Virus record (IMG/VR): IMGVR_UViG_3300044612_002233
Span: 62,001-120,027 of that record
Length of the DNA: 58,027 nucleotides
Direction: 5' to 3' (one strand)
Source: an uncultured virus (IMG/VR IMGVR_UViG_3300044612_002233)
Lineage: Duplodnaviria > Heunggongvirae > Uroviricota > Caudoviricetes
This document shows positions 32,201 to 48,204 of the stretch, piece by piece (the stretch's first letter is position 1; each line of letters begins with the position of its first letter). A model generated the notes under the pieces. The model was not told the DNA's origin and did no database searches. It worked only from the letters and a program-made list of their open reading frames with translations. Made by a program: the position numbers and the translations under genes.

Positions 32201-35200
32201 GTCTTTGTGGTGCAGCATTTACTGTTGGATCGTACCCTAGTGCTTGCTGAGTTTGTCCTGGTCTTGGCTTAACATAAATAGTTCCTTGTTTTGCATTCTT
32301 AACTGACGCGGCTGATGCTGCTGTATTTGTTGGGGCGTATTTTGTTGTTGGATTAACTCTTGGCTTAGCCCAATCTGGAACAATACCCTTAACCCCCAAC
32401 ACATCACCCATTTGAGTAGCAACATCTTGAACACCTTCAACGAAATTATCCACTCCTGCTCTAACGGCACGACCAGCAGACCTAAACGGAGCAGCCGCTG
32501 TGCTTGTTGCTCTGGGGAACGCACCAGAAATGTACGAACCCATTTCTCTAACATCTCCAGCAGCCTGAGCGGCTCCTCCTACAACATTATCCACGGTTGC
32601 TCCCACACTTCTAGCAAATCTACCAGCCCCAGGTAATCTTCCGACAGTATTTCCTGCTGCTCTTCTTGCTATTCCAGCGCCAGAAGAAACGACTCTTCCA
32701 GCAGCACCACCAATCCTACCGGCGGCATTAAATACCGCTCCTTCAGCATTAATTAATGCTCCTGCGCCTTGAGAGGCTGCATATCCAGTAGTTTGCGCAA
32801 ATGCTGTACCGAAGCCTAAATAACTATCCATACCACCAGCTAGTTGCACATTTCTAGCATCATTGCGTTGTAATGCAGTTTGCTCACCGGTTTGTATCGG
32901 TCCCATACCAGCAACAGCTTGCCCAGCTTCAACAAAACCCATTGCTCCAGCACCCATAGCATTAACACCAACTTCAGCAGCCGCTCTTGTTGCTGCAGAA
33001 TAAGCTCCTGGTTGATTATTTAGTCTTTCACTGTTTGCTGTAGCTGCTCTTGCTCTTATAACAGCAGCATCTTGAGCAGCCGCTATCTCTTGAGGCGATG
33101 GCATTGGTCTGCCATTAGCTCTAGCCTCATCATACATATTTTCTGCTGTTCTATTTCTTAAATTATTCTCATCCCCAATTTTAAAGGCTGTATCATCTCC
33201 AGACATAGCATATCCAATACCTCCAACAATAGGAGATGCAACTGTTGCAACTGCTCCGGCAGTTATATTTGCTGCCCCATAAAGAGCGTCTCCAATACCC
33301 TGAGTTACTCCTCCAACATATCCTGCTGCTGCTATAGCAGGATTACTGCTATTTATATATAATGATGCTTGTCTATCTTCTTCAGCTTTTTGTTGTTGTG
33401 CTCTAACCTTTTCTGCCGCACTAACTTGTTGAGCCCCCTCAAATTGCGCTATCGCTTCACTATTAGCTTGATCCTGTAATAATTGTTCGGTTGTTGGAAC
33501 AACATAATTTTCAAGTTTTTCCATATATGGTTTTGGCATATATTTTCTTTGTTCAGTCCTGTACTGTTCTCTTTGATCTTCTTTAACCTTTCCTTCACTA
33601 AGAAGTTGATTAAATTTATTGTCTATTTTACCTGTTTGTTCATCTAATTTAGCTTGATTTCTTTCATTGATTACTTGTTGTCTTCTTCCTTTTTTATATT
33701 TTTCTCTTTCTTCTGGATCATCTTCCATTGCATAAGTATTAGGATCTTTGCCTGATCTAGACGCTTCTAACTTCTGGTTAAATTCAACATCAAATGCTTG
33801 TTCTTGAGCTGCTATTTGTGCTCTTTTTTCTATTCCTATTTTTGTGCTAGTAATAGCACTATCTGCTTCTCTCTTTTTCTTCGTGTCGCTTGAAGTTGTA
33901 GCCGTTTGAATTGAAGAAGATAATCCTGGACTAGCAGTTATTCTATAAACATTTTGTGTTTCTGCTTTTGCTCGTATGTTTGGATCATTACTATATTCAT
34001 ATGGATCTGTAGCGCCAACAGATTGATAAGAATTTATTTGACTATTCGGCTTAAACAACTGATTTGGATACTTTATCATTGTCTCAGTCGCTAGTACATT
34101 TGATGGTGAACCAAGAGGAAAGTCAAACCAATCTCTGCGTGAACTTTCTCTATCTCTAACTGTTTTCTGAGACTCAAACCTTGGAGTATTAGGATCGCTT
34201 CCATATGTATAATTTCTTCCAGCAACATAATCTCCAGGTAATGACACCCTAGGACTTGGAACCATTGGACCATTATTCACACCTAATCTTCCATCCTCAT
34301 TTTTAATTTCTGGTGTTCTCAAATTAACAGAAGTATTAGTCTGGGTTGCTTGTTGAGTTTGCTGGGCCTCATAAGCTCTATTATCTGCTATGCGTCTAGT
34401 TAAACCAAGTAAAGGATCTCTTGTTTTATATTTTGGATCATTTGGATCTGGCTTTTGTAAAGGCTTATTGGTAGTATATTGTTGTGTAAATCCTGATTCG
34501 ATTACAGCATTTTGCTCGGCAGCCTGTTGCTCATTGCTTGGTCTTGAGTAGCCTTCATTTATTCTGGAGGCCATTGCTGGATCAACAGAGCCAGGTTTTC
34601 CTCCGTTGCTAGTTATTGGAGGCAACGCACCAATAAATGATAGAGCGCGTAGACTTCCTCTATTTCTACGATCAGAGCCTAACTCTTTTAGAGCCGATCT
34701 TTCTTCTGGCGTTATCTCATTAGACTGAGCACCTTTACGATAGGCACTATTTACTAAAGAAGAAATATTACGATCTTTTTCTACAGTATATGGACCGACC
34801 TCTCTTTTTATTTGATTAGATTTTAAGGTTGCATATTCTGTTTCTTCTTCTGAGCTTCTTCCTTTGCTTCCTTTAAGCCACAATGATCGTCTTCGTAACT
34901 CTTCAGATTTGATCTTTTTCTTCTCATTAATAGCTTCTTGAGTGGGTCTAATTTTTGTTGTTGTTCCTCTGCCCCATGGAACAACTTCTGCTTTTACTAA
35001 AGGAACTGGTAGCGATGGTTGAACGACAGATGTGGTATAGCTCATATCTGGCTTAATATCGCTCTTGGCCACTTGTGCCTCTTTGGCCTTAACCTCTGCT
35101 GTTTCTCTTGCGGTTTTGGCAGGATTTTCCACAGGCATTGGTTGACTATTAGTATTAGCACTTACATTTTCAGCTTTTAATCTATCTGCTGCTAATTTCC

Positions 35201-38200
35201 TTTCTCTCTCTTCTATTCTGACCATATTAGCTTGAGCCCTAGCTTCAAAATCGGGCTTAGCTTGTTCAGCAGCCATTCTTTCAGTCCAATTAACTCCATC
35301 TTTATGAAACTCCATACCTGATCCTGGACCATATCCTATTGCTTCTTCCGGAATACCAGCCGCTCTATATGCGTCATTTACCGCATTACTAGCCATTCTG
35401 CCCATATTAGTAGAATTAGGTTTATTTTCCACCAGATCCAAATCGTTAATGATGCTACGATCTGTTGTGGCCGAAGAGTCCCCCATATTTGCCTGAACAG
35501 CATATCCTTGATTTCTATTCATATCTATCTGACCAAGGCGTTGTTTTTCTTCTGGGGTGCTATATCTTTCTCTTCTGTCTCTCATCGTTCCGCTATGGTC
35601 TATTCTAGCATTCATAGCTATCTGAGTTTCTTTCCAAGTATCCTTATAATTACCAGGATTATATGAGTAATCAGTTATAACACTATTAACTCCTTCTTTT
35701 TCTTTATCTATCAGTTCCTGTTTCTGCTTATCGTCAAGTTGATCCCAAGCACCACCTACTCTGCCCGTAACCATATCGGTATTATTTTCTAATCTTCTTC
35801 TTGCTCTGGATTCAGCATAATCGGCCACGTAAGCATTTTTGTCTTCATCTGTTGACCAATTGCCAGATACAGAATCTAAGGTAGATGCCACAAAATTCCT
35901 GGTCCCAGCATTAATTTCAGCATCCACTAATTCTCTACCAGTTGCTTCATCAGATGCTCTTTCCTTACTATCTGAACTATTATATGATCTAGTTCTAGAC
36001 TCTATATTTCTATTTATCTGTGTTGCTTCCTCTCTTTCAGCATCTAATTTACCCTGTACATCTGCTCTGGTTCTGGGTTTGGCTACTTTTCCTCCATCTG
36101 CTAAATAAACTACTCCGCCCTTACTATAATTCCCACTATTAATAGCTTTCAATAATGGCAAGTGTTCTGCTGTTGATCTTGCATTAATAACAAACTCGCC
36201 CGGAGTTAACATGGCAGGAACAGTGTCGGTTCCTTGTGGTTGGAAATTTACTAATTGACCTTCACTAGCATAAATTAATCCTCCACGAGCCTTCGGAGGA
36301 GCAACTGGAGCAGCAACAGCTACTCCCGGATTAACTACTTTCTGTCCAGCAGCATTAACTCTACCCTCATTCATATCATTATTAAGCATACTAGCTTCAA
36401 TAGTTGTTCTAAGATCATCTATACTAACTTTAAGGTTAGCATTTGCTGATACTAGAGCCTGCTGAGATTCTAATAGAGCCAATTCTCCTTGTGCCTTAGT
36501 AGCATCAGCTTGTAATCCAACAGACTGTAAATATTTGCTAGAAGCTTCTTTCATTGCGGGATCAGCATTAGGATCTTCCATAGCGGCTATTGATTGTCTA
36601 ACAAGCGGATTATTCATCATTCCGCTCTCTATCGCCATACTCTTTGTTAATTGTATTTGTTGTTGTTTGAAATAGTCAGCAACAGCTTGATCGGCGCTTA
36701 CTCCTGGCTTTCCTTTGCCTTGAGCATATTGATTTCTTATATTTAATTCTTGAGCAGCTCGTACTCCAGGATCTTGTGATAAGGCCAAAGTTTCTTTTCT
36801 TTGATTGGCTAATACTGTATTACCAGCCTTGGTGGCTTCTCTTACACTTCCTGTTTCTCTTAATGTTTGATTAAATGCTTTACGAGCATCTCTTTGATTA
36901 CTGGCATTGTTTAATCCTCCAGAAAGATTTCGTTGAAGTCTTATGAATGTTTTATTAAGTTTATCAGCTTCTTCTGGGGTGTTAGTTAATAGCTGATTAA
37001 CAAAACTTTCTCTATTCTTCTGAAGCTCTCTAACATTCTTTAAATTGTCAAATGCTTTTTCTACTAATTCTGTACTAGTAGCTAATGTATCTAAAGCTTC
37101 TCTGGTATCTCTTAGTTGATCATCTAATGATCTTAGTTGTTCAGCAGACTTTTTAAGCTCATTAGGATCACTAATACCCTGTCTTTTTTCTTCTACAGCC
37201 GTTCTCTGTGCTTGTAAACCAACCATTCTATTCTGAATGCCGCGAACAGTCGTTTCTCCACCAGCTAATTTGGACACATCCCCCATAACTCTTGCTTGTT
37301 TCTCATCATAAGTTTCACCAACGCCCGTCATAACCTCTCTAAGATTCATATCTCCTTGAACTCTAATATCTCTAGCTTTCTTAAAATAGTTCTGAGCATC
37401 TTTTGCTGCTTTACTAGCATCCTTAAGACCTTCAGAGAAATCGGCTAATGCCCCTTGTTTAAACGATGATAGGGCCTTTACTGCTTCAAGCGTTTTGACT
37501 CCAAAAGCCCCAAGAATATTATCAGACTCTCCTAATCCTTCCCTAAAAGCATCTAATTCTGCTTGAGGCGTATCATTTTTTTTCTTAGCTTCTTCTGCTA
37601 AATTATTTATTCTTGTTTCTGCTTGTTTTTTAAGACTTGTCTTTTGTTCATCTGATAAGTTTGTTTTATCTATTTTTTCATTAGTAATTTTAATAGCCTC
37701 TGCCTTGGCTTCGTCAACTCCCAAACTTCCCTTGGTACTTAATTTATCTGCTATACTTTTTGTTATAGCATTAGGTAATTGTTGTTGTAATTGCGCTCCT
37801 CCTATTAACTGATTTCTAGTTTTTTCATCAACTCCTGCTGTAGCTGATTTTAGAGCATCATTAAAGTCTTGTTCAGAATAGGCGTTTGGATTTTCAAGAA
37901 CATTTAATTCTCTTAGCTTTGGACCACTATCTTCTGATTGTCCTCTTAATGCTGATCTGCTTTTTTCTGCCGATGATTTTCTAACATCCGATTCGAATTT
38001 TATTCTATTAACAGATTCACTAACAATACTTGATAATTTTTCAAAACTAGCTGCTAGTTTTCTACCAGCTTTATCCGCCGCCTCTAAAGCATCAGACATC
38101 TGTTTTGTCTTTATTGCAGATTGGACTTGAACATTGGTCAGTATTTTTTCATTAGCAACTTCATCTAATATAGCATCTTGTCTTTGTTGTGAAACCTTAT

Positions 38201-41200
38201 CATATCCACCTTCTGATATTATTCTTGCTCTAACCGTTTTAAGAGCATCTTCATCTGCTAATACTAATGCTCTTCTAGCCCCAATTAATTCTTTATCTGC
38301 TTGTATAGATTCTACACTAGCTCCAGTATTAATTTTTTGTGATATTAAAGCAAATGCCTTATCCCCACTATCAGCATTTCTTTCTGCTTGTTTACTAGCT
38401 AGTTCATTAACATCCTGAACATCCATCTTCGGCTTTTCTGCTCCGGATAGAAACTGTGTCCATGTTCTAGTTAGGCCCTTTTCGTTTTCAGCAACTTTAG
38501 TTTCAGCAGCTACTGCTTTGAGTGAAGATTCTGATGATCTAACAAGAGCCTTATCTAAAGCCTTTTGTAAATCTATATTACCAAGATCTTTCTCAAAATC
38601 CTTGAAAGCCTTAGCTAAATCTTTTTCAGAAGCTGCCACTTCTTCAAATCGTAAATTCTTTTCCATTTCTAGAGCAGCAGTTTTTTGCGCTCCAGTAAAA
38701 TCAAAGGCAGCATCAGCACCGGCATATAAAGCTGTACCTATAGCAACAGCAGCGCCTAGGTAGGGATTGATCGCCATTAACTGAGAGGCAGTAGTTAAAC
38801 CAGTTGCTAGTGTTGAGCCAGTTTTTTCTATGGCCGCACCAGTTTTGGCAGCTCCTACTTTGCCTGCGTCTGTTGAGGTATCATACATTAGATTTGCAAT
38901 ATTTTTTCCTTGTCCACCCACTAAACCAGCAGCCATTCCAACGTCTCCCAAAGCTGTTCCAACGCCTTGAGACGCTGTACCTGAGAAATACCTTCCTTGG
39001 ATGGCCTTTATAATAGGACTGTTTCTAATATCAGTTAAACCAGCGGCCCCAACTCCTTTTTCTCCCTGCTCTTTGGCCATCTCATTAATCATTTCTCTTC
39101 TTTTACTAACTTCTTCCTTAGCAAGAGCAAGTGCTTCTGATGCTGATTTGACTGAGACACCTCTAACAGTTCCAGCATTCTTATACTCTTCTAATCTCAT
39201 TGCAATAAGCTGCTTGTCCATCTGAGCTAATGTTTTACGATCAGTCATAGATTGAGAAACATAACTTTGAATATCAGCTCCACCAATGCCCATACCTGAA
39301 AGTTCTGATCTTTTAATTCCAGTAACTTTTTCTGTGGCTGATGCGAATGCCTGCTCTTTAATTTGTCTTTGTTCTTTTTCTAATCTTCTATTAGTTCTTC
39401 GTTCTAGTTTATCTTTGTCTCCTAATAATGATGGATCTTTTTTGATTAAATCTTTTTCTATTTGTGATTTTCTTTGCGCTGTAATTAATTTTTCTTTTTT
39501 CTCGGCTTCTGTTAAAATAGCTTGCTGGGCACCACCCGAACCAAGAACTTTACCTGTTTTTGATTCTTTTAATCCTGCTTCTAAAAATTGTCGTTTTACT
39601 ACTGCTGTTTTAGCTTGATCTCTAACGGCTTTTAGGGCTTTTTCTGCTGCTATTATAGTGTCTATTGATGCTCCGGTAATCTTGAGTCTTTCAACATCCT
39701 TAGTCATTGCCCTTTCAATATCTTTATAAGATATGTCGGCTCCTGCCCCCACTTGCTCAAGAATTTTCTTAAAGCTTATCATGCTATAACCAGCTTCTTC
39801 AAAACCTTGTGCTAATAATTTAACGTTATTAAATAGTTCAGATGAAGCTTCTAAGCTTTTACTATCAATAGTTTCTGGTCTAGTTTTTAATTTTTGAACT
39901 GCTGGTTCAGCAAGACCTTTTAATCCTTGCATTATTGCTTCAATACTAAAAACACTACCACCAGTAGCAAATCTTTGAATTACTCCTCCACCAACTACTC
40001 CGCCTTTATTATAACCCTGTATTTTATCTGCTTTATTTAGTTTTTCTAACTTACCATATCCAATATTTTGAGCAGCTTTTTTATTAATTACAAATTCGCC
40101 AGGAGTTAATAATGCAGGAACAGTGTCTTGAGATGATATTCCTGCTTGTCCTCCGTTGGCAAAAGTTTCGATATTGGTTGGTTTTAAAGGATTAGAACCA
40201 GTATACTTTAATGCTAATCCTAGTGGACGTTTAAATAATTCACTTTCAAATGAATTTATTAATTCGGGATCTCCACTTTGGAGTCTATTCATTATTTGAC
40301 CAAGAATCTCACCTTCTCTTATGTTAGAATCTCCACCAGCATATAGTGCTTTTCTTGAGCCTTCTGCTGATTGTACTTTTATACCTGCTGACATTACTCC
40401 CTTAGATGCATCTTTTGCTATAACATCTCTAATTCCGGCCAATCCCTTTTCTTTATCAGGAGCTGCCTTATCTTTTATCTTATCAAAATTATCATAAAGC
40501 CATTGTGTAACAAGATTCTTTTGAAGTTCATAGTCTAGGTCATAAGTTTTTGGATCTAAAATTTCATCAAAACTTAATACCATTGGTTTGCCTGATGTAT
40601 CACCACTAGTAACTGTAAATCCGCTTCCTCCTCCAACTCTCATTTTGGCTTGTTGTTCAGCTTTGTTCTTTTCTGTATATAGATAGAATCCAGCACCTTG
40701 ACCATATCCAGTAGCAATATTACTTAATGCTCCCTTTTCTTTAAAGCTTTTTAGCACACTATCATCAACACCAGTGTTGCTTCCATGATATAGTTTAGTC
40801 TTTCCTCCATCAGCAAACTGTTGTACTTTCATACCCTCAATATGTCTAATATCACCACCCAATAGTTTATCTTCTTGATCTTTACTGATTATTCTATCAA
40901 TATCGTCAATTCTGAATTTTGAAGTTGGTGGCAGAATAAATTCTTTTTCTATTCTTGTCGCTGATCGACTTCTACTTAAATAATCTGCTCCGCTTTTGCC
41001 AGAAACAGGATCGATGTATTTTGATAAAGCTTTTATAACATCATCTTCTGTAGAAGTATCAAATATTGTCTTGTCAACATCAATAGATGGAATATTTTTA
41101 TTTCTAAAGATACTCAACATTGCACTAGAGCCATTTTCTGGCTGAAATACAGCAGCGGTATCTGGAGATTCACTAGTAGATAATAATGATCCATTTAAAT

Positions 41201-44200
41201 TAAAGCTTTTACCAATAGCATCAGGAATATCTTTATTAGAACTTAATGGATTACCTATCTGAGTTAAGATGGTTTTTAATTTACCTCCAGCAACAGTAGA
41301 ATATAGTTTACCAGAACGCTTTGAGCCACTCATTGATTCTTTACTATTAAACATTTCCAATAAATCTTTTGCAGCATTCTTTGTAGCGTCATACGCTTTG
41401 GGCGGATCAGCATGGAAAGTTTTAAGATATTCCATGAAAGAATCATTATCTTCTAAATACCTATTTATAAATTCACTATCAGTTCCACCACCAGGAAATG
41501 GTCCTGTTCTGTATTTGGCTAATGAGACTAGTTGTTGTGGGGAATATACTTCTCCACCATCAACATATCTTTTCATCGGTCTAAGCCCAGGATCTGGTTC
41601 ACCTTTTAGCATTTCAGCAAGAATTTGCTGTCGAGGTGTTGGATCTGATAATGTTTCTGGAGCTAATAATGAAGAGAAGTCTGTTTTAACGCCAGATAGG
41701 GCCGCTTTGCGTGCTCGTCTTTTTTCTAGCATCTCCTTGAATTCTTCAAGATTTAGACCAAAGGTTTTTGCATCTCTCGCCAAACTATTAAACTCTAAAG
41801 CACTGAATCCACTACCTTGTTCTAGAGAAAAATAGTCTACTTTAGATTTTGGAATGTCAAATGGAGATGGACCAATAGGTTCTTTTGAGAAAGTAAACCT
41901 TCTAGATGCTTTACCTCCACGAGCCAATTTTTGTGGTTGTTCTAATTCTTTTGGTTCGGGAATACTGTATTGTTGTCTAAAATATTTTTGAAATTCTTCA
42001 ACAGCCTTGCCTCTACTATTACTATCTATTGTTCTTTTAACTTCTGTTGGAATATCAGGATCGATACCAAATATTTTTGCTGCTTTAGATCCAATACCCA
42101 TTGGAAAGTCAATCGGACGAGTTCTTAAAGCATCGTCTAATATTGTAGCATCTGCTGATCCAAAAATTTGTTCTAGTAAAGCGCCTTCAATATTACCCTG
42201 ACCTAATGTTTCTCTTTGTTTTTTGGTTAATTTCTTTGCAGATATTCCAAGAAGTTTGGCTGCTCCACCTACAATTTCTTCTGTTTGACCACTAAGATAA
42301 TCAATGACATTTTGATATTGTGTTGGTAATCCTCTTTGAACTATTGATGCGTCTATTGATCTTTCTTGGCCAGACGGATCGACTCCAAGATTCCAAGTCT
42401 CTGGACCTAATAATCCAGTATATCCTAGCGGATTTAAGCCAACTAATCCTAATTGTTTAGACGATAATACGGCATTAGTTGTTTCTGCTAGTGCTGTGGC
42501 CTTTTGAGTTCCTTGTGATTCATTAAATTTATCTATTAGATAGTCTCTTGTTGCAATATAGTAGGCGAGCTTGTCTGCTTTTGTTTCTGGTCTAAAGGCA
42601 GAATTCCAATATTTTAATTTTCCACCATCAGCAGTATCTCGTACTGTTTTTCCTGAGAATGGACCAAAACTTGGATCGTTTGGTAGTCTTTCTGTTCCAA
42701 ATCTTTTTAGAATCTCTGATCCTTGTGCTGGTAATATTCCAGAAGACTTTTTGACCTGCGTGGCCTTTTCTACATTTTTTAGTATCGCCTCTTCTAGTCC
42801 AGAAGGCATCTCTGTTGGAACTCCACCAAACTCACCAGCCATCTGTTCTGAAATTTGTGCTGATATGGCCTCTCTGGTTATGTCTGATGGTTGCGCAGAT
42901 ACAGGGGATTTTCTTGATGGGTCTAACCCATAAGTTTCTGGATATTTCGCAGATAGAGCGCTTATTATATTAAATGCTCTATAGCCAAATGCTCCTTTAG
43001 ATACTCGATCTCTTTTGTCTCTTATCTGCTTAACTTGCTCAGCTATTTCTGGATAATTTTTCTTTAGATCAGCACTAACATTACCATATGGACCACCAGG
43101 AGCATTTGATAATATTTCTGCAACCTCAGCATTGGATCGTACTTTATCTTGATCAACAAACTTTTGTATTTCTTCGATGAGCATAGGAACCATAGTGCTA
43201 CGATTACGTAATTGTGCTCTATTGCCCATTAATATTGATGCTATATCAGGATTCATTAAACTAGTAAGTGTTTTATCATCACCATTGAATAATGCGTCTC
43301 TAACTGCAGTAGCACTAATATCTTCTATTCTGGGAATATCTGTAACATCTATTCCTGCTCTTTGGTATTTGCCTAATGTTTTATCGTCTTTACCAGAAGT
43401 TATTGCCATGGCGCCTTTTAATCTGGCGAATTTTCTTCTATCTCCAGCATCAGTAACTTCCATAAATTTTGGTAAACCACCAGCAGTCTGGCTTTGAGTG
43501 CTAATCATGGCATTTCCAAAATTCATTTGGCTGAATAAGGTTCTTATATCTGATGGGAAAATACCATATCGTGCAGCGTGGTCTATACCTTCTTTACCAA
43601 CAATCATTGGAAGATCAGGAGCAACACTAACAAGAATATCTTCTAAAGAAGAGTTTGGGTTTTTTGCTAACATGTTTTCTAATAAAGTATCTAACGCTCC
43701 TCTATGGCCTCTTGTTGGTGGGGCAAAACCACCCATATAAAATCCACCAGCCTGAACTATTTCTGGTAGTTCGCTTTCTCTTTTACGTCTTAAACCGAAA
43801 CTATCTTTTTTTCTTCCTAATACTGTGGCTCTTTTGCCAAGTTCATCTCGTAATATGGTTTCTTCCAGACCAAAATCAATATCAGCTGCTCTTGTGGTTC
43901 CTGGTTTACGACCATACAATCCTTCTCCTGTAATATCTCTGCTCTCTCTATTTGACCTAACTCTATCTTGTTCCTCTCTGCTATTAGAGCTTAATACATA
44001 TGCTCTATCAACATCTTTTAAATAAGCATCTAATTTAGTCTGACTAGCTGTAGATGTTAATACTATAACCTCATTAACTTTGTTTATATCTTCAGGCGTT
44101 AATATTTGAGAGCGAATTGTTTTTCTTAAAGTAGCATCATCATTAGCTCCCTTTCCGGTTGCTAAACTGCTTTTTCCACTTCCAGCAGCTCCAGCAATAG

Positions 44201-46910
44201 CTCTAAACCTAGATAGCGATCCACTTTTTCTAGCATTGCCTGCCAATTCTCCAAGTTTTGTTGTATAGTCACTAACATCAGTTATTCCAAGCTTTTCCAT
44301 TGCTGGCCTAACTATCGCCGCATTAGCTTCATCTCTTAGTACATCCGTATCAACTACTCCAATTTTTCTTTCTACTTTTCCTCCAACCATGAACTTAGCC
44401 AATCCTTTAGTCTCTGTCATTTTTTTAGTAAAATCACTGTCTTTGATTGTTTTTAGAAGACGGGCTCTGTTTTGTCTTATATTACCTAAACTATCAAATC
44501 TGTCCTGAGACTCTTCTGGCATATAGTTAAACATATAATCATCTTTAATAACCCTATCCCATGATGACTTATTGGTATTGCCAAATCCTGAATTTTTCTT
44601 CATTATCTCTAGTCTATTTGCTAGCTTATCTGCTTGAATAATATCTTGACCTTTTTTAGTTCCACTATATTTTGCAACATTCTCTCCTACTAATTTTTTA
44701 TTAAGAGCACCAATTTCCGCCATTGGTCTGCCATAGTAATCTACTTTATTAGCGTCGATAAAAATTTTAGCTAATTTTTCTTTACCAAGTCCACTTATAA
44801 AATCTATAGTTATATCTTTGGCTCTTTTGCCTTTCTCTCTATTACTAGCATATGCCGGACCTTTTCCTCCTTGACTAGCATACTCTTCTCTTTCTTTTTT
44901 TGATGCTTTAATTTCAAAAGCATCTATTCCTTCAAGTCTAGATGTGACTTTAAATTTACCTTTTTCACTAGGATAAATTAAATCGCCAGTTAGTTTTTTA
45001 AAACGTTTATTAACTAGTGTTTGTGTTGGATCAACCAATAAATTTATACTATCTGCATCATAAGCTTTGAGCCTACCAGCATACTGCTTGTTAGACTTAG
45101 AATATTCTTGAACATCAATATCGTCATATAGTTTACCTCCATTACCGAATCTTTTTCTTCTATTTGATTTTCCTGCTCGTATACTTCCACCACTTCCATA
45201 CTTATTCATACTATGAAGATTATCAGCACCAATAGTTTCAACAGCTTTCTTTCGTATCACAAATTCTCCTGGCTCTAACATTGCCGGAACAGTATCTCCA
45301 CTACCAGTGCCTGGAACAACACCTCCTCTTGCGAATTTTCTAATTACTCCACCATTAGCTTTACCGTCTGGTCCTCTTTTAACTCCAGTACTAAAACCAC
45401 TAGCAAATTGAGTTAAAGCTTTAGCTCCTTTAAATGCTGTTATAATAGCAAGAGCTGGTAATATTCCTTTAATAGCATCTGTAACTTTAATTAGTCCACT
45501 AGCTAAACTTAAAGCTCCTCTTATTAATGACTGAAATCCTTTTGATTGTCCTATTTCTCTGAATAAGGCAAAAAACTCTTGTCTTACTTTGCTAATTTGA
45601 TTTGCTAAAGAAAGTTGTGCAGTTGCGGCGTCTTTTGCTAGTGATCCTTGTCCAGCTTGGGCGGTCTTTAATGCTTCTTGGGCAACTGTGAACTGCTGAA
45701 TAAGTGGGATAACTTTACCAATTTGTCGGAATCCACCAAGTTCTTCAACTATCTTGGAAAACTGTAAACTTCTTGGGTCAATTCCGCTCAATCCTTTACT
45801 TAATAATTCAACAGCTTTATAGGCTCCTACGAATTTGCCCTCAGTATCGGTTAGATTAACTCCAAACTCTTTCAGAGCATCTATTGTGCCTCCTCTCTGA
45901 ATACGAGTAAAAATTGTTCTTAAGCCAGTAGAAATAGTTTCAGCACTTTCACGAGTAGTAGCACGAACACTGGTAAAAACTGCAATAAATTCATTTAAAG
46001 CATCCTTACCTTCGCTAACTCCCTTACTTGCTGTTGCGAATACGCTACCCGTTCTTTGAACAGCAGTAATAATGTCAGAAGACTCAACAGCGAATCTGGC
46101 AGCAACAGTATTTACAGCACCTAATGCTCCTTCTAAATCATCTGCACTAATACCAAACTGTCGCATCAATGCGATACTTCCTTCTACTGTCTCATTCATG
46201 TCATCAAAAGACGGAGCCAAACTACTTAATGCTAAAGCTCTTAACGCTTTTTCTGTTTCTCTTGCGCTTAAACCGGCCTGTGCTAATGTAGAAGCAACAG
46301 AGGTCAAATCTTTAGAGCTAACGCCAAATGTTGTTGACAGATTTGTAATTTGATCTTGTAGTTTAGCAAGACCTGATGATGATTCTCCAGTAACTTGTTG
46401 TAATTTAACTAATTCTTTATCATAATCAATAAACGCTTGAACACCCTGACTAATACTATTAGTAAGTCCATATATAACACTAGTAACAGTACTAAATGCT
46501 ACGAATCTTCTGATAGCAAGACCAGCCTGTTTACCGAACTCTTGCATCTCTGCTGATGCTGATCCAAGATCTTTTGCTGATGAGGATGATGCTTTATTAA
46601 GTTTATTAACAGCATTAGCTGCTGCATTTATTTGTTGTGGAATATTATTTACTTTAACACTATTTATACTATTGCCAAAAGCTTTGATAGCTGCTGCAGC
46701 AGAAGTGGCGGCTGTCGTTGTTGAACCAAATGTAGCATTTAATGTCTTAAGAGACGAGGACAAAGCCGCAACATTTTTAGTTACAGCAGGATCAAGCTTA
46801 AAAGTAACATTCGCATTAATATTACCAAGATCTTTTTTAATTTGTGCAGCAATTTGCTTTACATTTGTTGGTCCTTGTAAATTAAGTTGTGCAGTTAGGT
46901 TGAATGCCAT
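29262..46910 (-). CDS. Giant tape measure protein (5882 aa) carrying multiple putative enzymatic cargo domains
   Basis: N-terminal TP901-like TMP core (FIDYDKELVKLQQVTGES...STLAQAG...AARFAVESSDI...GLRTIFTRI), long Ala/Lys/Glu helical tracts and hydrophobic segments (~38705-38815). It follows the tube and chaperone genes and has an AGGA SD. Confidence 0.92.
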   Translation of the reverse strand: MAFNLTAQLNLQGPTNVKQIAAQIKKDLGNINANVTFKLDPAVTKNVAALSSSLKTLNATFGSTTTAATSAAAAIKAFGNSINSVKVNNIPQQINAAANAVNKLNKASSSSAKDLGSASAEMQEFGKQAGLAIRRFVAFSTVTSVIYGLTNSISQGVQAFIDYDKELVKLQQVTGESSSGLAKLQDQITNLSTTFGVSSKDLTSVASTLAQAGLSARETEKALRALALSSLAPSFDDMNETVEGSIALMRQFGISADDLEGALGAVNTVAARFAVESSDIITAVQRTGSVFATASKGVSEGKDALNEFIAVFTSVRATTRESAETISTGLRTIFTRIQRGGTIDALKEFGVNLTDTEGKFVGAYKAVELLSKGLSGIDPRSLQFSKIVEELGGFRQIGKVIPLIQQFTVAQEALKTAQAGQGSLAKDAATAQLSLANQISKVRQEFFALFREIGQSKGFQSLIRGALSLASGLIKVTDAIKGILPALAIITAFKGAKALTQFASGFSTGVKRGPDGKANGGVIRKFARGGVVPGTGSGDTVPAMLEPGEFVIRKKAVETIGADNLHSMNKYGSGGSIRAGKSNRRKRFGNGGKLYDDIDVQEYSKSNKQYAGRLKAYDADSINLLVDPTQTLVNKRFKKLTGDLIYPSEKGKFKVTSRLEGIDAFEIKASKKEREEYASQGGKGPAYASNREKGKRAKDITIDFISGLGKEKLAKIFIDANKVDYYGRPMAEIGALNKKLVGENVAKYSGTKKGQDIIQADKLANRLEIMKKNSGFGNTNKSSWDRVIKDDYMFNYMPEESQDRFDSLGNIRQNRARLLKTIKDSDFTKKMTETKGLAKFMVGGKVERKIGVVDTDVLRDEANAAIVRPAMEKLGITDVSDYTTKLGELAGNARKSGSLSRFRAIAGAAGSGKSSLATGKGANDDATLRKTIRSQILTPEDINKVNEVIVLTSTASQTKLDAYLKDVDRAYVLSSNSREEQDRVRSNRESRDITGEGLYGRKPGTTRAADIDFGLEETILRDELGKRATVLGRKKDSFGLRRKRESELPEIVQAGGFYMGGFAPPTRGHRGALDTLLENMLAKNPNSSLEDILVSVAPDLPMIVGKEGIDHAARYGIFPSDIRTLFSQMNFGNAMISTQSQTAGGLPKFMEVTDAGDRRKFARLKGAMAITSGKDDKTLGKYQRAGIDVTDIPRIEDISATAVRDALFNGDDKTLTSLMNPDIASILMGNRAQLRNRSTMVPMLIEEIQKFVDQDKVRSNAEVAEILSNAPGGPYGNVSADLKKNYPEIAEQVKQIRDKRDRVSKGAFGYRAFNIISALSAKYPETYGLDPSRKSPVSAQPSDITREAISAQISEQMAGEFGGVPTEMPSGLEEAILKNVEKATQVKKSSGILPAQGSEILKRFGTERLPNDPSFGPFSGKTVRDTADGGKLKYWNSAFRPETKADKLAYYIATRDYLIDKFNESQGTQKATALAETTNAVLSSKQLGLVGLNPLGYTGLLGPETWNLGVDPSGQERSIDASIVQRGLPTQYQNVIDYLSGQTEEIVGGAAKLLGISAKKLTKKQRETLGQGNIEGALLEQIFGSADATILDDALRTRPIDFPMGIGSKAAKIFGIDPDIPTEVKRTIDSNSRGKAVEEFQKYFRQQYSIPEPKELEQPQKLARGGKASRRFTFSKEPIGPSPFDIPKSKVDYFSLEQGSGFSALEFNSLARDAKTFGLNLEEFKEMLEKRRARKAALSGVKTDFSSLLAPETLSDPTPRQQILAEMLKGEPDPGLRPMKRYVDGGEVYSPQQLVSLAKYRTGPFPGGGTDSEFINRYLEDNDSFMEYLKTFHADPPKAYDATKNAAKDLLEMFNSKESMSGSKRSGKLYSTVAGGKLKTILTQIGNPLSSNKDIPDAIGKSFNLNGSLLSTSESPDTAAVFQPENGSSAMLSIFRNKNIPSIDVDKTIFDTSTEDDVIKALSKYIDPVSGKSGADYLSRSRSATRIEKEFILPPTSKFRIDDIDRIISKDQEDKLLGGDIRHIEGMKVQQFADGGKTKLYHGSNTGVDDSVLKSFKEKGALSNIATGYGQGAGFYLYTEKNKAEQQAKMRVGGGSGFTVTSGDTSGKPMVLSFDEILDPKTYDLDYELQKNLVTQWLYDNFDKIKDKAAPDKEKGLAGIRDVIAKDASKGVMSAGIKVQSAEGSRKALYAGGDSNIREGEILGQIMNRLQSGDPELINSFESELFKRPLGLALKYTGSNPLKPTNIETFANGGQAGISSQDTVPALLTPGEFVINKKAAQNIGYGKLEKLNKADKIQGYNKGGVVGGGVIQRFATGGSVFSIEAIMQGLKGLAEPAVQKLKTRPETIDSKSLEASSELFNNVKLLAQGFEEAGYSMISFKKILEQVGAGADISYKDIERAMTKDVERLKITGASIDTIIAAEKALKAVRDQAKTAVVKRQFLEAGLKESKTGKVLGSGGAQQAILTEAEKKEKLITAQRKSQIEKDLIKKDPSLLGDKDKLERRTNRRLEKEQRQIKEQAFASATEKVTGIKRSELSGMGIGGADIQSYVSQSMTDRKTLAQMDKQLIAMRLEEYKNAGTVRGVSVKSASEALALAKEEVSKRREMINEMAKEQGEKGVGAAGLTDIRNSPIIKAIQGRYFSGTASQGVGTALGDVGMAAGLVGGQGKNIANLMYDTSTDAGKVGAAKTGAAIEKTGSTLATGLTTASQLMAINPYLGAAVAIGTALYAGADAAFDFTGAQKTAALEMEKNLRFEEVAASEKDLAKAFKDFEKDLGNIDLQKALDKALVRSSESSLKAVAAETKVAENEKGLTRTWTQFLSGAEKPKMDVQDVNELASKQAERNADSGDKAFALISQKINTGASVESIQADKELIGARRALVLADEDALKTVRARIISEGGYDKVSQQRQDAILDEVANEKILTNVQVQSAIKTKQMSDALEAADKAGRKLAASFEKLSSIVSESVNRIKFESDVRKSSAEKSRSALRGQSEDSGPKLRELNVLENPNAYSEQDFNDALKSATAGVDEKTRNQLIGGAQLQQQLPNAITKSIADKLSTKGSLGVDEAKAEAIKITNEKIDKTNLSDEQKTSLKKQAETRINNLAEEAKKKNDTPQAELDAFREGLGESDNILGAFGVKTLEAVKALSSFKQGALADFSEGLKDASKAAKDAQNYFKKARDIRVQGDMNLREVMTGVGETYDEKQARVMGDVSKLAGGETTVRGIQNRMVGLQAQRTAVEEKRQGISDPNELKKSAEQLRSLDDQLRDTREALDTLATSTELVEKAFDNLKNVRELQKNRESFVNQLLTNTPEEADKLNKTFIRLQRNLSGGLNNASNQRDARKAFNQTLRETGSVREATKAGNTVLANQRKETLALSQDPGVRAAQELNIRNQYAQGKGKPGVSADQAVADYFKQQQIQLTKSMAIESGMMNNPLVRQSIAAMEDPNADPAMKEASSKYLQSVGLQADATKAQGELALLESQQALVSANANLKVSIDDLRTTIEASMLNNDMNEGRVNAAGQKVVNPGVAVAAPVAPPKARGGLIYASEGQLVNFQPQGTDTVPAMLTPGEFVINARSTAEHLPLLKAINSGNYSKGGVVYLADGGKVAKPRTRADVQGKLDAEREEATQINRNIESRTRSYNSSDSKERASDEATGRELVDAEINAGTRNFVASTLDSVSGNWSTDEDKNAYVADYAESRARRRLENNTDMVTGRVGGAWDQLDDKQKQELIDKEKEGVNSVITDYSYNPGNYKDTWKETQIAMNARIDHSGTMRDRRERYSTPEEKQRLGQIDMNRNQGYAVQANMGDSSATTDRSIINDLDLVENKPNSTNMGRMASNAVNDAYRAAGIPEEAIGYGPGSGMEFHKDGVNWTERMAAEQAKPDFEARAQANMVRIEERERKLAADRLKAENVSANTNSQPMPVENPAKTARETAEVKAKEAQVAKSDIKPDMSYTTSVVQPSLPVPLVKAEVVPWGRGTTTKIRPTQEAINEKKKIKSEELRRRSLWLKGSKGRSSEEETEYATLKSNQIKREVGPYTVEKDRNISSLVNSAYRKGAQSNEITPEERSALKELGSDRRNRGSLRALSFIGALPPITSNGGKPGSVDPAMASRINEGYSRPSNEQQAAEQNAVIESGFTQQYTTNKPLQKPDPNDPKYKTRDPLLGLTRRIADNRAYEAQQTQQATQTNTSVNLRTPEIKNEDGRLGVNNGPMVPSPRVSLPGDYVAGRNYTYGSDPNTPRFESQKTVRDRESSRRDWFDFPLGSPSNVLATETMIKYPNQLFKPNSQINSYQSVGATDPYEYSNDPNIRAKAETQNVYRITASPGLSSSIQTATTSSDTKKKREADSAITSTKIGIEKRAQIAAQEQAFDVEFNQKLEASRSGKDPNTYAMEDDPEEREKYKKGRRQQVINERNQAKLDEQTGKIDNKFNQLLSEGKVKEDQREQYRTEQRKYMPKPYMEKLENYVVPTTEQLLQDQANSEAIAQFEGAQQVSAAEKVRAQQQKAEEDRQASLYINSSNPAIAAAGYVGGVTQGIGDALYGAANITAGAVATVASPIVGGIGYAMSGDDTAFKIGDENNLRNRTAENMYDEARANGRPMPSPQEIAAAQDAAVIRARAATANSERLNNQPGAYSAATRAAAEVGVNAMGAGAMGFVEAGQAVAGMGPIQTGEQTALQRNDARNVQLAGGMDSYLGFGTAFAQTTGYAASQGAGALINAEGAVFNAAGRIGGAAGRVVSSGAGIARRAAGNTVGRLPGAGRFARSVGATVDNVVGGAAQAAGDVREMGSYISGAFPRATSTAAAPFRSAGRAVRAGVDNFVEGVQDVATQMGDVLGVKGIVPDWAKPRVNPTTKYAPTNTAASAASVKNAKQGTIYVKPRPGQTQQALGYDPTVNAAPQRPSTVYVQPRKGQVPDATPGSGSVDDSLRTTTKADADAKAKLDSSKTQAESVNKARADADASAKVKADAAAKAKADAAKMQDDAAAKTRAKDAAKVQQEAADRAKVDAAAAKADAKSSTTPSKAGKASSAIDSAKEMSKEEFLSKLSSSESSVYDILGVQPGTPLTSQGVRDLVRKYNKFTHPDLGGSAELQARLNKIVELASDPDSLSQYDTILKNGIRLKDGTIVRPSPDRLLSVWKTKKVKGQVVPFAQSSFADLAPAGTKAKSTASTATATQSTKKAPSKAELREQSRASVRSSRQAERQSLAKMQKAELESMTSGQKAQMQAAREARMKPFSSNAEESAFAMRGIIKNSNLDTKAQETLDSFFTRYIDKNTTKGPSHLSYSSLYDDVTRYLVDSGLNSDDLMTQLYAKFDKGYNDFDLKLIRDVKEARQFPDGLRTYDPKVSKERPIAGSENAQMVIPGVRRTGKHKQGPGLYNPMKADLLDTPITKRGIAEREARLAASKATFDDFIAGVNQAKTPASLTANKQLAQLDAQIASLRSQEKPDSWFGLKKGVSKKEEIDKLLKTRNTMLYQAQIDEGKRVFEIEKTGLGQSYYDESDPLWKSAVEAGIPNQFRTYGSMRNAPADLIESAEAYGRLSNSYKQSRGVGTGRSTTSVDNKYVNYSGFEGAIIDPKTGKRSLEKFETKAHAQVEDTGKPVYEFDSQGGIHVRGPSLRAKSTEIYNIPADEVTPEIIEKLHKLGIQKFNKGGIVYANNGALIPYLSQGTDTVPAMLTPGEFVVNRESSQQHMPLLNAINSGHFNRGGIVNYLANGGIVAPKYYAAAGLVSGGSGGSSGSSGVSNDISSSISAAVGQAMNQLSTALQSGMETYSQMMQSSTETLNNFGQTFASASQTIASSANTWSETASQIPTSLTAEVTGRQVVDFTGLGKEGDRIVSSAAQAGQLAGSQTSQNTMAKYDRSQFEGNLNTAANNRPMRT
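31566..31752 (-). other. J-domain (DnaJ-like) within the TMP
   Basis: SVYDILGV...RKYNKFTHPDLGGSAELQARLNKIVELASDPDSLSQYD carries the Y.ILGV, HPD and SDP....YD hallmarks. Confidence 0.85.
40170..40800 (-). other. His-Tyr clade (PARP/diphtheria-toxin-like) ADP-ribosyltransferase-like domain within the TMP
   Basis: TKLYHGS...SFK...GYGQGAGFYLYTEKNKAEQQA. Confidence 0.68.
40830..41550 (-). other. VIP2/C3-like (R-S-E clade) ADP-ribosyltransferase-like domain within the TMP
   Basis: KLYSTV (the expected Arg position holds Ser), LLSTSES and IEKEFILPPTSKFRI. Confidence 0.7.
41960..42460 (-). other. Putative PD-(D/E)xK restriction-endonuclease-fold domain within the TMP
   Basis: GNIEGALLEQ (helix Glu), RPIDFP (Asp) and TEVKRT (ExK) appear in canonical order. 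Confidence 0.5.
43270..43750 (-). other. HxGH-class (HUP) nucleotidyltransferase-like domain within the TMP
   Basis: YMGGFAPPTRGH at ~43704-43740 and C-terminal ISATAVRDAL at ~43290-43320 are the two signature motifs of the CoaD/NadD/cytidylyltransferase superfamily. Confidence 0.78.
43800..44220 (-). other. P-loop kinase-like domain within the TMP
   Basis: Walker A AIAGAAGSGKS at ~44169-44200, with a later R-x-x-x-R lid-like helix (RVRSNRESRD). Confidence 0.65.
44660..45080 (-). other. Thermonuclease (SNase-like) domain within the TMP
   Basis: YDADS...RLEGIDAFE...GKRAKD...DYYGRPMA...LNKKLVGENVAKY follows the SNase order DGDT / RL.GIDAPE / G..A / D.YGR.LA / N..LV..G.A. Confidence 0.78.
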
Positions 46911-47012: not shown

Positions 47013-47912
47013 CTAAGCTGGAGCAACCTCTTTTGATTCAGAAACAACGGGCTGAGCTGGTTGAGTCTCTGGCTCGACTGTTTCTGTTTTTGCTGTTGGT
47101 TCATCTTTTTTGTCTTCTTCTAAGATTACTGGGTTTCCGTTTTCATCTAGGAAAGGCTTTGCATCAACGAGATAATCTCCATCGGAAGTTACTCTGTTGC
47201 CATACTTATCAACAAAGTTACCTTCTTCGTCTATGAATCTTCCACTCTCATCAATCAGCCTACCTTCCGCATCAATTAGTCTGCCCTTCTTGTCTACTAA
47301 TCGTAACTTATCATCAACAAACTTAAACTTCTTTAAGAATTTGTTTTCTGGTAAATTACTTTCGTAGTCATTATCCAAACCATACAGCATATTGGCCAAG
47401 TTTTGTGCTCCTAGTAGTCCAACCTGATCAGTTGATCTATTAAGATAGTCTTCCATATTGTTAAAATACGGTTGCTTGCTATCATTATACACCACACAAA
47501 CACTAACTAAATAGTTAAATCTAGCATTATCTGCTTGACCTTCGGCACTATGATTGTCTAGAGATGTACGAACACTGATAAGATCTCGTATTTCATCTCT
47601 GACGCCCTTCATTTTAATCGCAAGGTCTTTGGCTTCATTTAAACTAAATCCACCCTTAGCGAGCCTCTTCTCGCCATCAAGCAATTCTTTTTGCAGAGTG
47701 GTGAACTTGGCCTGTTTCTCATCATTCCATAATCCTTGATCTTCTAATAGATCATCTAATTTTGCCCTTACAACACTTTTGCTTTTAATAGCATCAGTAA
47801 AAGCTTGATTATAGACCTTCTGAGCCTCTCTTTGATCATTTAAAGATGGTGTTTTAACAAGAAATTCTTTTTCTGCACCATCAATCATTGTCTTAAAAGT
47901 CTTAGTTTTCAT
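47013..47912 (-). CDS. Putative tail assembly chaperone with heptad beta-hairpin repeats (start revised from 47939 to ATG 47912)
   Basis: Immediately upstream of the TMP. AAGGAG lies 7 nt before ATG 47912. Repeats read LVDKKGR/LIDAEGR/LIDESGR/FIDEEGN/FVDKYGN. Confidence 0.55.
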   Translation of the reverse strand: MKTKTFKTMIDGAEKEFLVKTPSLNDQREAQKVYNQAFTDAIKSKSVVRAKLDDLLEDQGLWNDEKQAKFTTLQKELLDGEKRLAKGGFSLNEAKDLAIKMKGVRDEIRDLISVRTSLDNHSAEGQADNARFNYLVSVCVVYNDSKQPYFNNMEDYLNRSTDQVGLLGAQNLANMLYGLDNDYESNLPENKFLKKFKFVDDKLRLVDKKGRLIDAEGRLIDESGRFIDEEGNFVDKYGNRVTSDGDYLVDAKPFLDENGNPVILEEDKKDEPTAKTETVEPETQPAQPVVSESKEVAPA

Positions 47913-48204
47913 ATCCGTCTCCTTCTTTCTTTTTATCAAAATTAAATTGATATTTTTGTTTTACTGTGTTATTATTACCAAAATAATTGCTAAGATCATC
48001 AATTGCTGATCGTGCTTGTTTATTTCCGTTGTTGAGTATACTATTTCTAGCATATTCCCACATATCTTCAAATTCTTCAGCTTCTTTGCTATCATTTTCC
48101 CATAAATGTCCAAAAATAGCTTCGAATCTTGCTAGTGAGCCAATCATTGTGGTTTGAAATTTTTTATATACATTATCTATTAAGAGTTTTTGTTCGTTTG
48201 TCAT
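47902..48204 (-). CDS. Hypothetical protein, 100 aa
   Basis: Co-oriented and overlaps the next gene. Confidence 0.65.
   Translation of the reverse strand: MTNEQKLLIDNVYKKFQTTMIGSLARFEAIFGHLWENDSKEAEEFEDMWEYARNSILNNGNKQARSAIDDLSNYFGNNNTVKQKYQFNFDKKKEGDGYEN

Follow-up and report, generated by a model that had tools for sequence, protein, structure and literature searches.

The 58,027-nucleotide stretch analysed here (the window) comes from an uncultured virus of the Caudoviricetes (IMG/VR IMGVR_UViG_3300044612_002233) and forms the right-hand part (58 kb) of a phage record of 120,027 bp (G000), which is rated 87% complete. Its largest feature is one minus-strand open reading frame (ORF) of 5,882 aa, identified from its sequence as a phage tail tape measure protein (TMP), in which an initial annotation had noticed repeated [FYL]-x-x-G-G motifs. 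Four copies of a segment that we call the GEFV box lie in this protein, and accessory cassettes (C1 to C5; Table 1) are set between the first two. We propose, with a probability of about 60%, that in giant multi-box TMPs the single units that make up the arms of these boxes serve as protein-level joints for cassette exchange.

Motif content and the GEFV box

The assignment as a TMP follows from a Pfam match to PF10145 at residues 185-391 (E 3e-25 to 8e-28) and from matches of the first 500 residues to many TMP families in PHROG, such as phrog_28 (E 6e-30). All of the motifs listed in the initial annotation fall inside this ORF, in which residue i begins at window base 46910-3(i-1). The ten motifs that it placed within 39955-45365 are present within a few bases of the positions given, all five that it reported around boxes 3 and 4 (YSKGG, LADGG, FNKGG, FNRGG and LANGG) were found, and the translation confirms that QFADGG stands directly before KTKLYHGS. 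With five matches that it had not listed, [FYL]xxGG occurs 20 times, against 5.4 +/- 2.3 expected from 5,000 residue shuffles, none of which reached 20. At the third residue before GG, phenylalanine is found 10 times (1.6 expected), tyrosine 4 times (1.4) and leucine 6 times (3.9), so leucine alone is weak in this protein; in the junction contexts of relatives it is a normal alternative to phenylalanine or tyrosine. The enrichment is a property of the TMP and not of the genome, because the remaining 97 ORFs of the 120-kb genome show no excess of [FY]xxGG (10 observed, 11.6 expected).

Relatives were collected by a word-indexed search with residues 520-2330, which returned 144 proteins at E<=0.001; the 120 listed among them are the relatives referred to below. 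These giant proteins (3,235-10,294 aa, on contigs of up to ~250 kb) nearly all carry PF10145, hold 2-8 boxes each by pattern count, and are mosaic, as their coverage of the query ranges from 3 to 84%. Over the 121 giant proteins, [FY]xxGG is found 1,715 times, compared with 413.5 expected from GG counts, and the consensus is approximately (GG-x-[VI]-Q)-[KR]-[FLY]-A-x-G-G-x-[VAI]. The gaps between successive motifs in the same 121 proteins peak sharply at exactly 9 residues (295 of 2,307); they also form a cluster of 30-79 residues, which spans a box, and a broad, domain-sized one of 120-800 residues. RTX nonapeptide repeats (GGxGxDxUx), whose consensus repeats every 9 residues and has G and D at its fourth and sixth positions, were considered and rejected; the period fits, but positions 4 and 6 are here V and a variable residue.

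The four boxes have their PGEFV cores at residues 547, 2270, 3570 and 5680. Each box begins with an [FY]AxGG unit, followed after ~10-18 residues by DTVPAMLTPGEFV, a short helix-prone stretch and one or two further [FYL]xxGG units. In three of the four boxes the (P)GEFV core is flanked on either side by an [FY]AxGG unit; in box 3 the upstream unit is KARGG. The arms of the boxes hold 2-4 tandem units, and many TMP families in PHROG match each box through their C-terminal part. A profile built from 23 boxes of the window and seven IMG/VR loci gave two matches to Douge gp16 among the sequences of solved structures (E 6.4e-8) and one to lambda gpH at residues 731-798 (E 2.3e-5), where the alignment spans both FATGG and YATGG. 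Additionally, phrog_24, phrog_4346 and phrog_13338 are common to box 2 and the C-terminus of lambda gpH.

Box-bearing TMPs are numerous. When the profile was searched against 1.84 billion representatives, 25,143 proteins were matched at E<=0.001, of which 1,483 reached E<=1e-30; the best 150 of the 25,143 have 4-12 matched stretches in 2,257-7,872 residues. A tblastn search with one box in 50,697 isolate phage records matched 66, among them phages of Gordonia, Nodularia, Burkholderia and Ralstonia, and in 40 of 40 listed of the 66 the match is at a single place, in a TMP. The single C-terminal box typical of isolates is not the arrangement in the window, where four copies are found; the initial annotation had described a single FAxGG...GEFV as common in TMPs and amplified here, and both points hold. 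From the gap pattern, including the 9-residue peak, and the box-profile matches, we conclude that the motif is the unit, ~9 residues long, that is repeated in the glycine-rich arms on either side of a conserved TMP GEFV box.

Such an origin invites a structural interpretation, in which the motif is a strand-turn unit that binds the tube lumen, an assembly chaperone or the hub, or that zips TMP chains together at module boundaries, and would hold a chain with globular inserts in register inside the tail. The exact 9-residue periodicity agrees with this, as does the presence of units on both sides of the box in ordinary single-box TMPs including lambda gpH, and the 25,143 box-bearing representatives imply an ancestral role tied to tail assembly rather than to effectors. 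However, one would expect a role that depends on the fold to be lost in a unit that lies 250-800 residues from a box, and such units are nevertheless conserved. Box 2 modelled alone as a monomer with AlphaFold2 (23 alignment rows) is of low confidence, with a mean predicted local distance difference test score (pLDDT) of 52, and consists largely of coil, a single helix following GEFV; the model was too poor to be used in a fold search. This fits the corresponding part of lambda gpHC (~690-817), which is not resolved in virions according to the available text of PMC12617516. The predicted trimer of three box copies scored 0.00 and weighs neither for nor against self-association. We consider a docking or structural role rather unlikely, and rank it slightly below the processing or hinge role taken up further on.

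Breakpoints among relatives

The evidence that carries our proposal is the position of the seams. Comparing the TMP with the 120 relatives by BLASTP yielded 473 alignments of 150 aa or longer, which have 800 internal ends. Of all positions, 3.7% fall within 5 residues of a motif centre, whereas 295 of the 800 ends do; for a distance of 10 residues the figures are 6.4% of positions and 401 ends. Nearly all of the 295 (292) are at the 15 box and junction motifs, and only 3 are at the five remaining pattern matches (1057, 1805, 2189, 2456 and 5730), which are not at seams; one of these, FYMGG at 1057, overlaps by eye the nucleotidyltransferase (NTase)-type motif GGFAPPTRGH. The four PGEFV cores, although the most conserved part of the box, account for only 2 of the 800 ends. 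The strongest sites are 3603, 5650, 840, 1662, 2032 and 2250, and weaker ones are 588, 571 and 1782 (counts in Table 1). An all-against-all comparison of the 121 proteins gave 44,877 distinct ends, of which 7,382 are no more than 5 residues from a motif, where 1,820 were expected. Alignment ends peak there from the second G to position +4 and starts from -7 to -1, which marks the motif as the piece that is shared.

Individual relatives show the events directly. Cassette C5 is missing from P0002, which reads ...KVQQFANGG/QAGISS where the window has ...KVQQFADGG/KTKLYHGS...(C5)...TFANGG/QAGISS. In P0003 an insert of ~424 residues begins exactly after ...FMVGG/ and ends ...TYAAGG/KVERKIG. Locus L006 is 89-90% identical in DNA over residues 1-1656 and 1783-2036 and has no C3, the difference lying exactly between two GG motifs (...AFADGG/EVYTPQQLV, against ...KLARGG/(C3)...YVDGG/EVYSPQQLV in the window); it also carries a different cassette after ...QQFKDGG/. 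Cassettes are thus gained, lost and replaced among relatives at the motif joints, and in the close relative L006 at the GG codons. The view of the initial annotation that the motifs mark cassette boundaries and joints of gain and loss is borne out by these junctions and by the concentration of ends; breakpoint mapping in homologues, set beforehand as a check, places many of the ends at the motifs and not independently of them, and so the recombination-joint part of that view is supported. Its statement that the motifs fall between domains holds for the stand-alone copies at 588, 840, 1662, 1782, 2032, 2250 and 3603, by their breakpoints and the C5 model, but not for the copies adjacent to PGEFV, which belong to the box arms.

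Retention and level of selection

Retention of the motif at the cassette borders was counted without requiring that an alignment reach the motif, a count for which random 30-aa windows score ~0.10. A motif is kept after the end of C2 in 74 of 76 cases, after C5 in 45 of 46, before C5 in 44 of 46, before C2 in 75 of 81 and after C1 in 24 of 27. Among alignments that do reach the motif, a count that is biased towards retention, GG at site 1662 is kept in 73 of 74 relatives while the linker columns there are 5-61% identical, and at site 840 GG is kept in 27 and 25 of 27. Upstream of the C5 anchor KLYHGSNTG, [FLY]AxGGx[VI] stands two residues ahead in 25 of 25 distinct contexts, which stem from several visibly different upstream cassettes. 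The variant of the motif follows the upstream cassette, and the motif therefore behaves as the C-terminal tail of that cassette.

One alternative is that the motifs are scars without function: cassettes would have been inserted into the repeat arrays because glycine-rich linkers tolerate insertion, and the copies would be the leftover halves. Arms of 2-4 tandem units would leave one unit on each side of an insertion, motif-free junctions exist, and some junctions have lost the motif, as in the 8 of 20 cases after C3 where it is not kept. Against this, the GG, the alanine and the hydrophobic position are kept at ~50% identity in alignments reaching the motif, where the preceding linker columns are 0-61% identical across the sites, and the retention of 74 of 76 and 45 of 46 was counted free of that requirement. 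We regard passive scars as improbable.

A second alternative places the joint in the DNA, with the motif codons supplying the identity for homologous swapping of cassettes, as the homology joint of the initial annotation implied. The breaks at GG codons in a relative with ~90% DNA identity would suit it. However, the codons differ among the copies (GGA GGT, GGT GGA, GGT GGT or GGC GGA, with TTC or TTT), which share at most ~10 scattered bases. In a repeat search the motifs were not accompanied by long direct repeats, and the box cores (65-73% identical over 60 nt) were the sole long repeats in the DNA; homologous exchange would more likely start in the flanking shared cassettes or in the boxes. 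Of the earlier idea, the exchange joint stands and the DNA homology does not, the motif being too short and its codons too variable; a DNA-level joint is disfavoured and seems to us a poor prospect. Since the motif persists next to differing cassettes and its codons and linker vary, selection appears to act on the peptide and not on DNA homology, and the pattern fits selection on the peptide after recombination.

We therefore return to joints at the protein level. In giant multi-box TMPs, single box-arm units have probably been turned into standard joints, such that each accessory cassette between box 1 and box 2 closes with one unit and the next folded domain begins within ~2 residues of it. 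Each unit would act alone, as a short linear motif that is recognised in the protein, and in-frame exchanges would survive selection only when the motif is kept.

Several observations weigh against this interpretation. Retention is incomplete at some borders: 12 of 20 after C3, 56 of 80 after box 1 and 78 of 98 after box 3. Within residues 593-2249, 174 of 300 ends are at no motif, including 26 near residues 1320-1349 inside C2, which show C2 to be composite, and of 114 ends in residues 2319-3540 only 4 are at a motif and 110 are not. Residues 3608-5649, more than 2,000 in all, have no motif and are mosaic nevertheless, with motif-free breaks near 3872-3996, 4182-4199, 4312 and 4877-4881. Additionally, the sequences compared are related, so that their ends do not represent independent events, and the exact break residue is blurred by ~5 residues because local alignments tend to run into any conserved island.

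Cassette content

The likenesses of the cassettes to enzymes are weak or by eye. C1 is staphylococcal-nuclease-like by eye only (RLEGIDAFE, residues 658-666) and this copy has no Pfam or Protein Data Bank (PDB) sequence match; relatives carry precomputed PF00565 (in P0013), PF03496 and PF16581. C2 contains by eye a Walker-A-like GAAGSGKSS (907-915) and the HIGH-type GGFAPPTRGH (1060-1069), together with weak hints of PhoH (E 0.059), HIGH_NTase1_ass (E 0.044) and the cytidyltransferase family phrog_395 (E 0.0035). C4 is possibly, on weak grounds, an ADP-ribosyltransferase (ART) of the R-S-E type, matching PF03496 at E 0.036, below the curated cut-off, with an STS motif at residues 1911-1913 by eye. 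C5 weakly matches DUF3990 in Pfam (E 0.077). Comparison of C1, C2 and C3-C5 with PDB sequences gave nothing meaningful.

An AlphaFold2 model of C5 with both flanking motifs (231 residues, window 40131-40823, 20 alignment rows) has a pLDDT of 65 and a predicted TM-score of 0.66. Model residues 1-5 and 224-231, which include both motifs, are low-confidence coil (pLDDT <50), and the first strand, TKLYHGSNTG, begins two residues after GG. Foldseek found nothing in the PDB at E<=0.001 for this model; a pre-ejectosome chain from cyanophage A4 (9k3a_B, E 0.02, TM 0.31 on the query) ranked first, and the other rows were weak (E 0.16-0.6) and mostly ART folds, namely diphtheria toxin, PltA, cholera toxin A, Tpt1 and tankyrase, the rows for the tankyrase PARP domain having 24-28% identity over ~85 columns. 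In agreement with these rows, the LYHGS of C5 presumably corresponds to the HG[ST] first-strand motif of PARP and diphtheria-toxin-type enzymes. We consider C5 to be weakly ART-fold-like.

Cleavage as a possible role

If the joints are read at the protein level, processing is one way of reading them. A phage or host protease may cut at or next to each [FYL]AxGG and so free the nuclease-, NTPase/NTase- and ART-like cassettes of a polyprotein in the tail or in the infected cell, a tentative suggestion that we would put at clearly less than even odds. It would explain a 7-9-residue motif conserved within drifting, disordered linkers that abut folded domains, and lambda gpH is cut in the homologous region. 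As described in PMC12617516, the lambda cut lies in the glycine-rich C-terminal region and yields gpH* and a ~14 kDa fragment, the site and the enzyme not being established. Because of this, the link from lambda to cleavage of the giant TMP is an indirect one. A cut after FATGG-737 would give 80.1 and 12.2 kDa, compared with the reported ~14 kDa fragment.

T5 pb2 is cut after R1127 into pb2* and pb2C, between the TMP body and the C-terminal enzymatic part (PMC10038345), and by eye the cut FVPR/AEGGMMYPG lies directly before an AxGG. In pb2 (L015) residues 1120-1150 the cut site is followed by AEGGMMYPG...GEHGTEVV, which resembles a box arm and core by eye. As a box homologue T5 pb2 was rejected, having no box-profile match and no PHROG in common with lambda gpH or box 2, and the likeness thus lacks profile support. 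The TMP gp96 of Thermus phage P23-45 (5,002 aa), full-length in virions according to PMC10770324, has neither the box nor the motif enrichment, in keeping with cleavage at the motif. For the same reason gp96 was set aside as a counter-example to cleavage, since a protein with neither box nor motif says nothing on the motif. The accessible text of a marine phage proteomics study (PMC12014285) contains nothing on TMP cleavage.

Other findings count against cleavage. The maturation protease anticipated in the initial annotation did not emerge: neither this genome nor the relatives searched yielded a candidate protease of the GG type, and the only protease detected was a ClpP-like enzyme encoded at genome 13533-14195, beyond the window, which matches head-maturation PHROGs. 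Proteases like this usually work within the prohead, and heads are not needed for lambda tails to mature. No C48 (clan CE), C39 or M23 peptidase was found in G000 or in the relatives G003 and G004 (the last 100% complete), and no Prok-JAB in G000, at its 87% completeness, or in G001-G004, a set outside which L005 stands; the cut-offs were E<=1 to 10, at which distant or novel proteases would be missed. Pfam likewise recorded no peptidase family, M23 included, at E<=1 in 21 segments of the TMP. The tandem copies at 9-residue spacing are odd for a protease site, the C-terminal mosaic half has no motif, and proline directly follows GG in 15 of 425 stand-alone copies. In these 425 copies the hydrophobic residue is at P5 and alanine at P4, which departs from the rule of known GG-cleaving proteases; adenain, ASFV pS273R, PLpro and deubiquitinase (LXGG) sites have a hydrophobic P4 and GG at P2-P1.

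Two specific mechanisms were rejected. Enzymes with a JAB/MPN domain, which lambda gpK has, cleave behind GG, but the absence of Prok-JAB from G000 and G001-G004 led us to drop a gpK-type JAB as the agent. S24/LexA-like self-cleavage, suggested by eye from "DTVPAML..GEFV" and GDSM..GD, fails in lambda, which has YEPAG there and no Ser or Thr.

Taken by analogy, the fact that lambda gpH is cut somewhere in the homologous glycine-rich region inclines us to a processing or hinge site that would act during tail maturation or after ejection, although we hold this as a leaning and at odds well below even. A bolder version, which is less probable still, is that [FYL]-A-x-G-G is the maturation-cleavage element of box-bearing TMPs, including the one sought since 1974 that would convert lambda gpH to gpH* and gpHC, and that it has been multiplied in giant TMPs to give a polyprotein that threads nuclease-like, NTPase/NTase-like and two ART-like enzymes through the tail and frees them in the host.

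Gene layout and other features of the genome

The features of the TMP are collected in Table 1. The C-terminal tail may be the hub-binding end by analogy with the resolved C-termini of lambda gpH (818-849; PMC12617516) and Douge gp16 (1658-1699; PMC13033339), as given in the available text of those papers. In the motif-free half, residues 5082-5089 (window 31644-31667) read by eye as a J-domain-like ..YDILGV.. followed by HPD; no Pfam match at E<=1 was found in residues 3608-5649, this segment included.

Table 1. Features of the giant TMP in the window, in order along the protein; breakpoints are counted among 800 alignment ends.
Feature	Residues	Window position	Strand	Evidence or remark
Giant TMP ORF P0001	5,882 aa	29262..46910	-	PF10145, TMP PHROGs, 144 giant relatives
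N-terminal TMP core, hydrophobic stretch at end	1-525	45336..46910	-	PF10145/TMP PHROG; in 114/120 relatives
Box 1: FARGG - DTVPAMLEPGEFV - YGSGG - FGNGG	526-592	45135..45335	-	matches TMP PHROG C-terminal part
FARGG (box 1)	526	45321-45335	-	
YGSGG (box 1)	571	45186-45200	-	14 breakpoints
FGNGG (box 1)	588	45135-45149	-	19 breakpoints
Cassette C1	593-839	44394..45134	-	in 24/120 relatives
Joint FMVGG	840-844	44379..44393	-	44/800 breakpoints <=5 aa
Cassette C2, composite	845-1661	41928..44378	-	in 56/120 relatives
FYMGG (other match)	1057		-	
Joint LARGG	1662-1666	41913..41927	-	33/800 breakpoints
Cassette C3	1667-1781	41568..41912	-	in 21/120 relatives
Joint YVDGG	1782-1786	41553..41567	-	11/800 breakpoints
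Cassette C4, possible R-S-E-type ART (weak)	1787-2031	40818..41552	-	in 5/120 relatives
FPGGG (other match)	1805		-	
Joint FADGG	2032-2036	40803..40817	-	24/800 breakpoints; low-confidence coil in model
Cassette C5, weakly ART-fold-like, H-Y-E-type LYHGS first strand	2037-2249	40164..40802	-	in 46/120 relatives
LYAGG (other match)	2189		-	
Box 2: FANGG - DTVPALLTPGEFV - YNKGG - FATGG	2250-2318	39957..40163	-	phrog_24 E 6e-7
FANGG (box 2)	2250	40149-40163	-	24 breakpoints
YNKGG (box 2)	2300	39999-40013	-	
FATGG (box 2)	2314	39957-39971	-	
Helical/TMP-body-like by eye, one hydrophobic Gly/Ala-rich segment	2319-3540	36291..39956	-	in 64/120 relatives
LGSGG (other match)	2456		-	
Box 3: KARGG - DTVPAMLTPGEFV - YSKGG - LADGG	3541-3607	36090..36290	-	phrog_25241 E 6e-9
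YSKGG (box 3)	3595		-	
LADGG (box 3)	3603		-	58 breakpoints
Motif-free mosaic half, hydrophobic Gly/Ala-rich stretches by eye	3608-5649	29964..36089	-	no [FYL]xxGG
Box 4: FNKGG - DTVPAMLTPGEFV - FNRGG - LANGG	5650-5718	29757..29963	-	phrog_25241 E 7e-6
FNKGG (box 4)	5650		-	48 breakpoints
FNRGG (box 4)	5705		-	
LANGG (box 4)	5714		-	
C-terminal tail, Gly/Ser-rich then polar; hub-binding end by analogy	5719-5882	29265..29756	-	sequence
LVSGG (other match)	5730		-	

Two small ORFs lie directly upstream of the TMP gene (47013-47939 and 47902-48204) and large tail-fibre-like ORFs lie downstream. Three such ORFs, at 9608-12634, 12649-16563 and 25791-29258 (minus strand), have FGE-sulfatase (C-type-lectin-like) matches at E 2e-7 to 9e-14, and an ORF beyond the window at genome 16138-17361 (L001) has an Mtd_N domain (E 1.3e-8). 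FGE-sulfatase and Mtd_N domains are typical of the targets of diversity-generating retroelements. The Pfam scan of ORFs of at least 100 aa contained no reverse transcriptase; template and variable repeats were not searched for. The GC skew reaches +0.31 at window 10001-12000, inside a 1,008-aa ORF, with neighbouring 2-kb windows at -0.14 to +0.08. In the head and neck block, a 329-aa ORF (window 54519-55508, minus strand) matches the proprotein-convertase P-domain PF01483 (E 2.8e-10) and phrog_1084.

Beyond the window, at L003:2199-8498 (genome 40199-46498), the gene for DNA polymerase III alpha is split into a piece with the PHP domain and the start of an NTPase with intein/Hint matches, a piece with the rest of the NTPase, and a piece with finger, HhH and OB domains; endonuclease-like and exonuclease-like ORFs lie between the pieces. 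The 120-kb record is probably incomplete, because a 150,248-bp IMG/VR contig (L005), 30 kb longer than the record, is 100% identical to the TMP over the matched query stretch of 676 aa.

Comparison with known systems

Lambda gpH has the same local arrangement as the boxes described here: FATGG (733), ~10 aa, EPAGIVHRGEFV, ~25 aa and YATGG (778), in a glycine-rich, structurally unresolved region beside a hydrophobic stretch, as far as the available text of PMC12617516 describes it. Unlike the present protein, gpH has one box, ~60 residues from its resolved hub-binding end, and no enzyme cassettes, whereas the TMP in the window has four boxes and at least five cassettes. The link makes an old question concrete, namely whether gpH is cut at FATGG or at YATGG. 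Douge gp16 (PDB 8zdo; 1,699 aa) has two boxes, YAGGGFL...GEFI at ~960-1036 and YANGGFL...GEFI at ~1411-1460, so that box multiplication is not unique to the giant family. In the available account the resolved part of gp16 is confined to its last 42 residues (PMC13033339), so that the structure does not include the boxes.

The gp96 protein of P23-45 is likewise a giant TMP that carries a working enzyme, a virion RNA polymerase, into the host (PMC10770324). In contrast to the TMP described here, it has a single N-terminal enzyme, no GEFV box and no excess of [FY]xxGG (2 observed, 1.7 expected). Polyvalent proteins (Iyer et al. 2017, PMC5512222) may be similar; they combine many conflict-type enzyme domains, including ARTs, in one injected, mosaic polypeptide, from which release by embedded metallopeptidases has been proposed in the same paper. 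They differ in that they are not TMPs, and in the available text of PMC5512222 "tape measure" occurs 0 times and linkers are not mentioned, so that no standard joint motif came to light there. An embedded releasing peptidase of that kind was not detected in the TMP (21 segments, E<=1).

MARTX toxins and polymorphic-toxin junctions (VENN, PxxxxDPxGL) are alike in principle: short conserved junctions mark off effector arrays or swappable ends and serve as exchange points, and in MARTX they also serve in processing. These are secreted bacterial toxins and not virion proteins, and they are not known to be related to the TMP in sequence; in the TMP no sign of a cysteine protease domain was seen.

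Functional joints would provide a format by which enzymes can be plugged into phage tails and an early-effector route distinct from capsid-packaged ejection proteins and polyvalent proteins, and the joints suggest where foreign modules might enter a TMP without breaking it. Among open-access papers and preprints we found no description of motif-punctuated cassette arrays in TMPs. The box-bearing TMPs, with their 25,143 representatives, form a large and apparently undescribed class. TMP profiles already contain the single box, although it has no name, and giant enzyme-bearing TMPs and polyvalent proteins are also known; what appears in none of the papers found is a large multi-box TMP family in which cassettes lie between boxes, each closed by an arm unit, with exchange taking place there.

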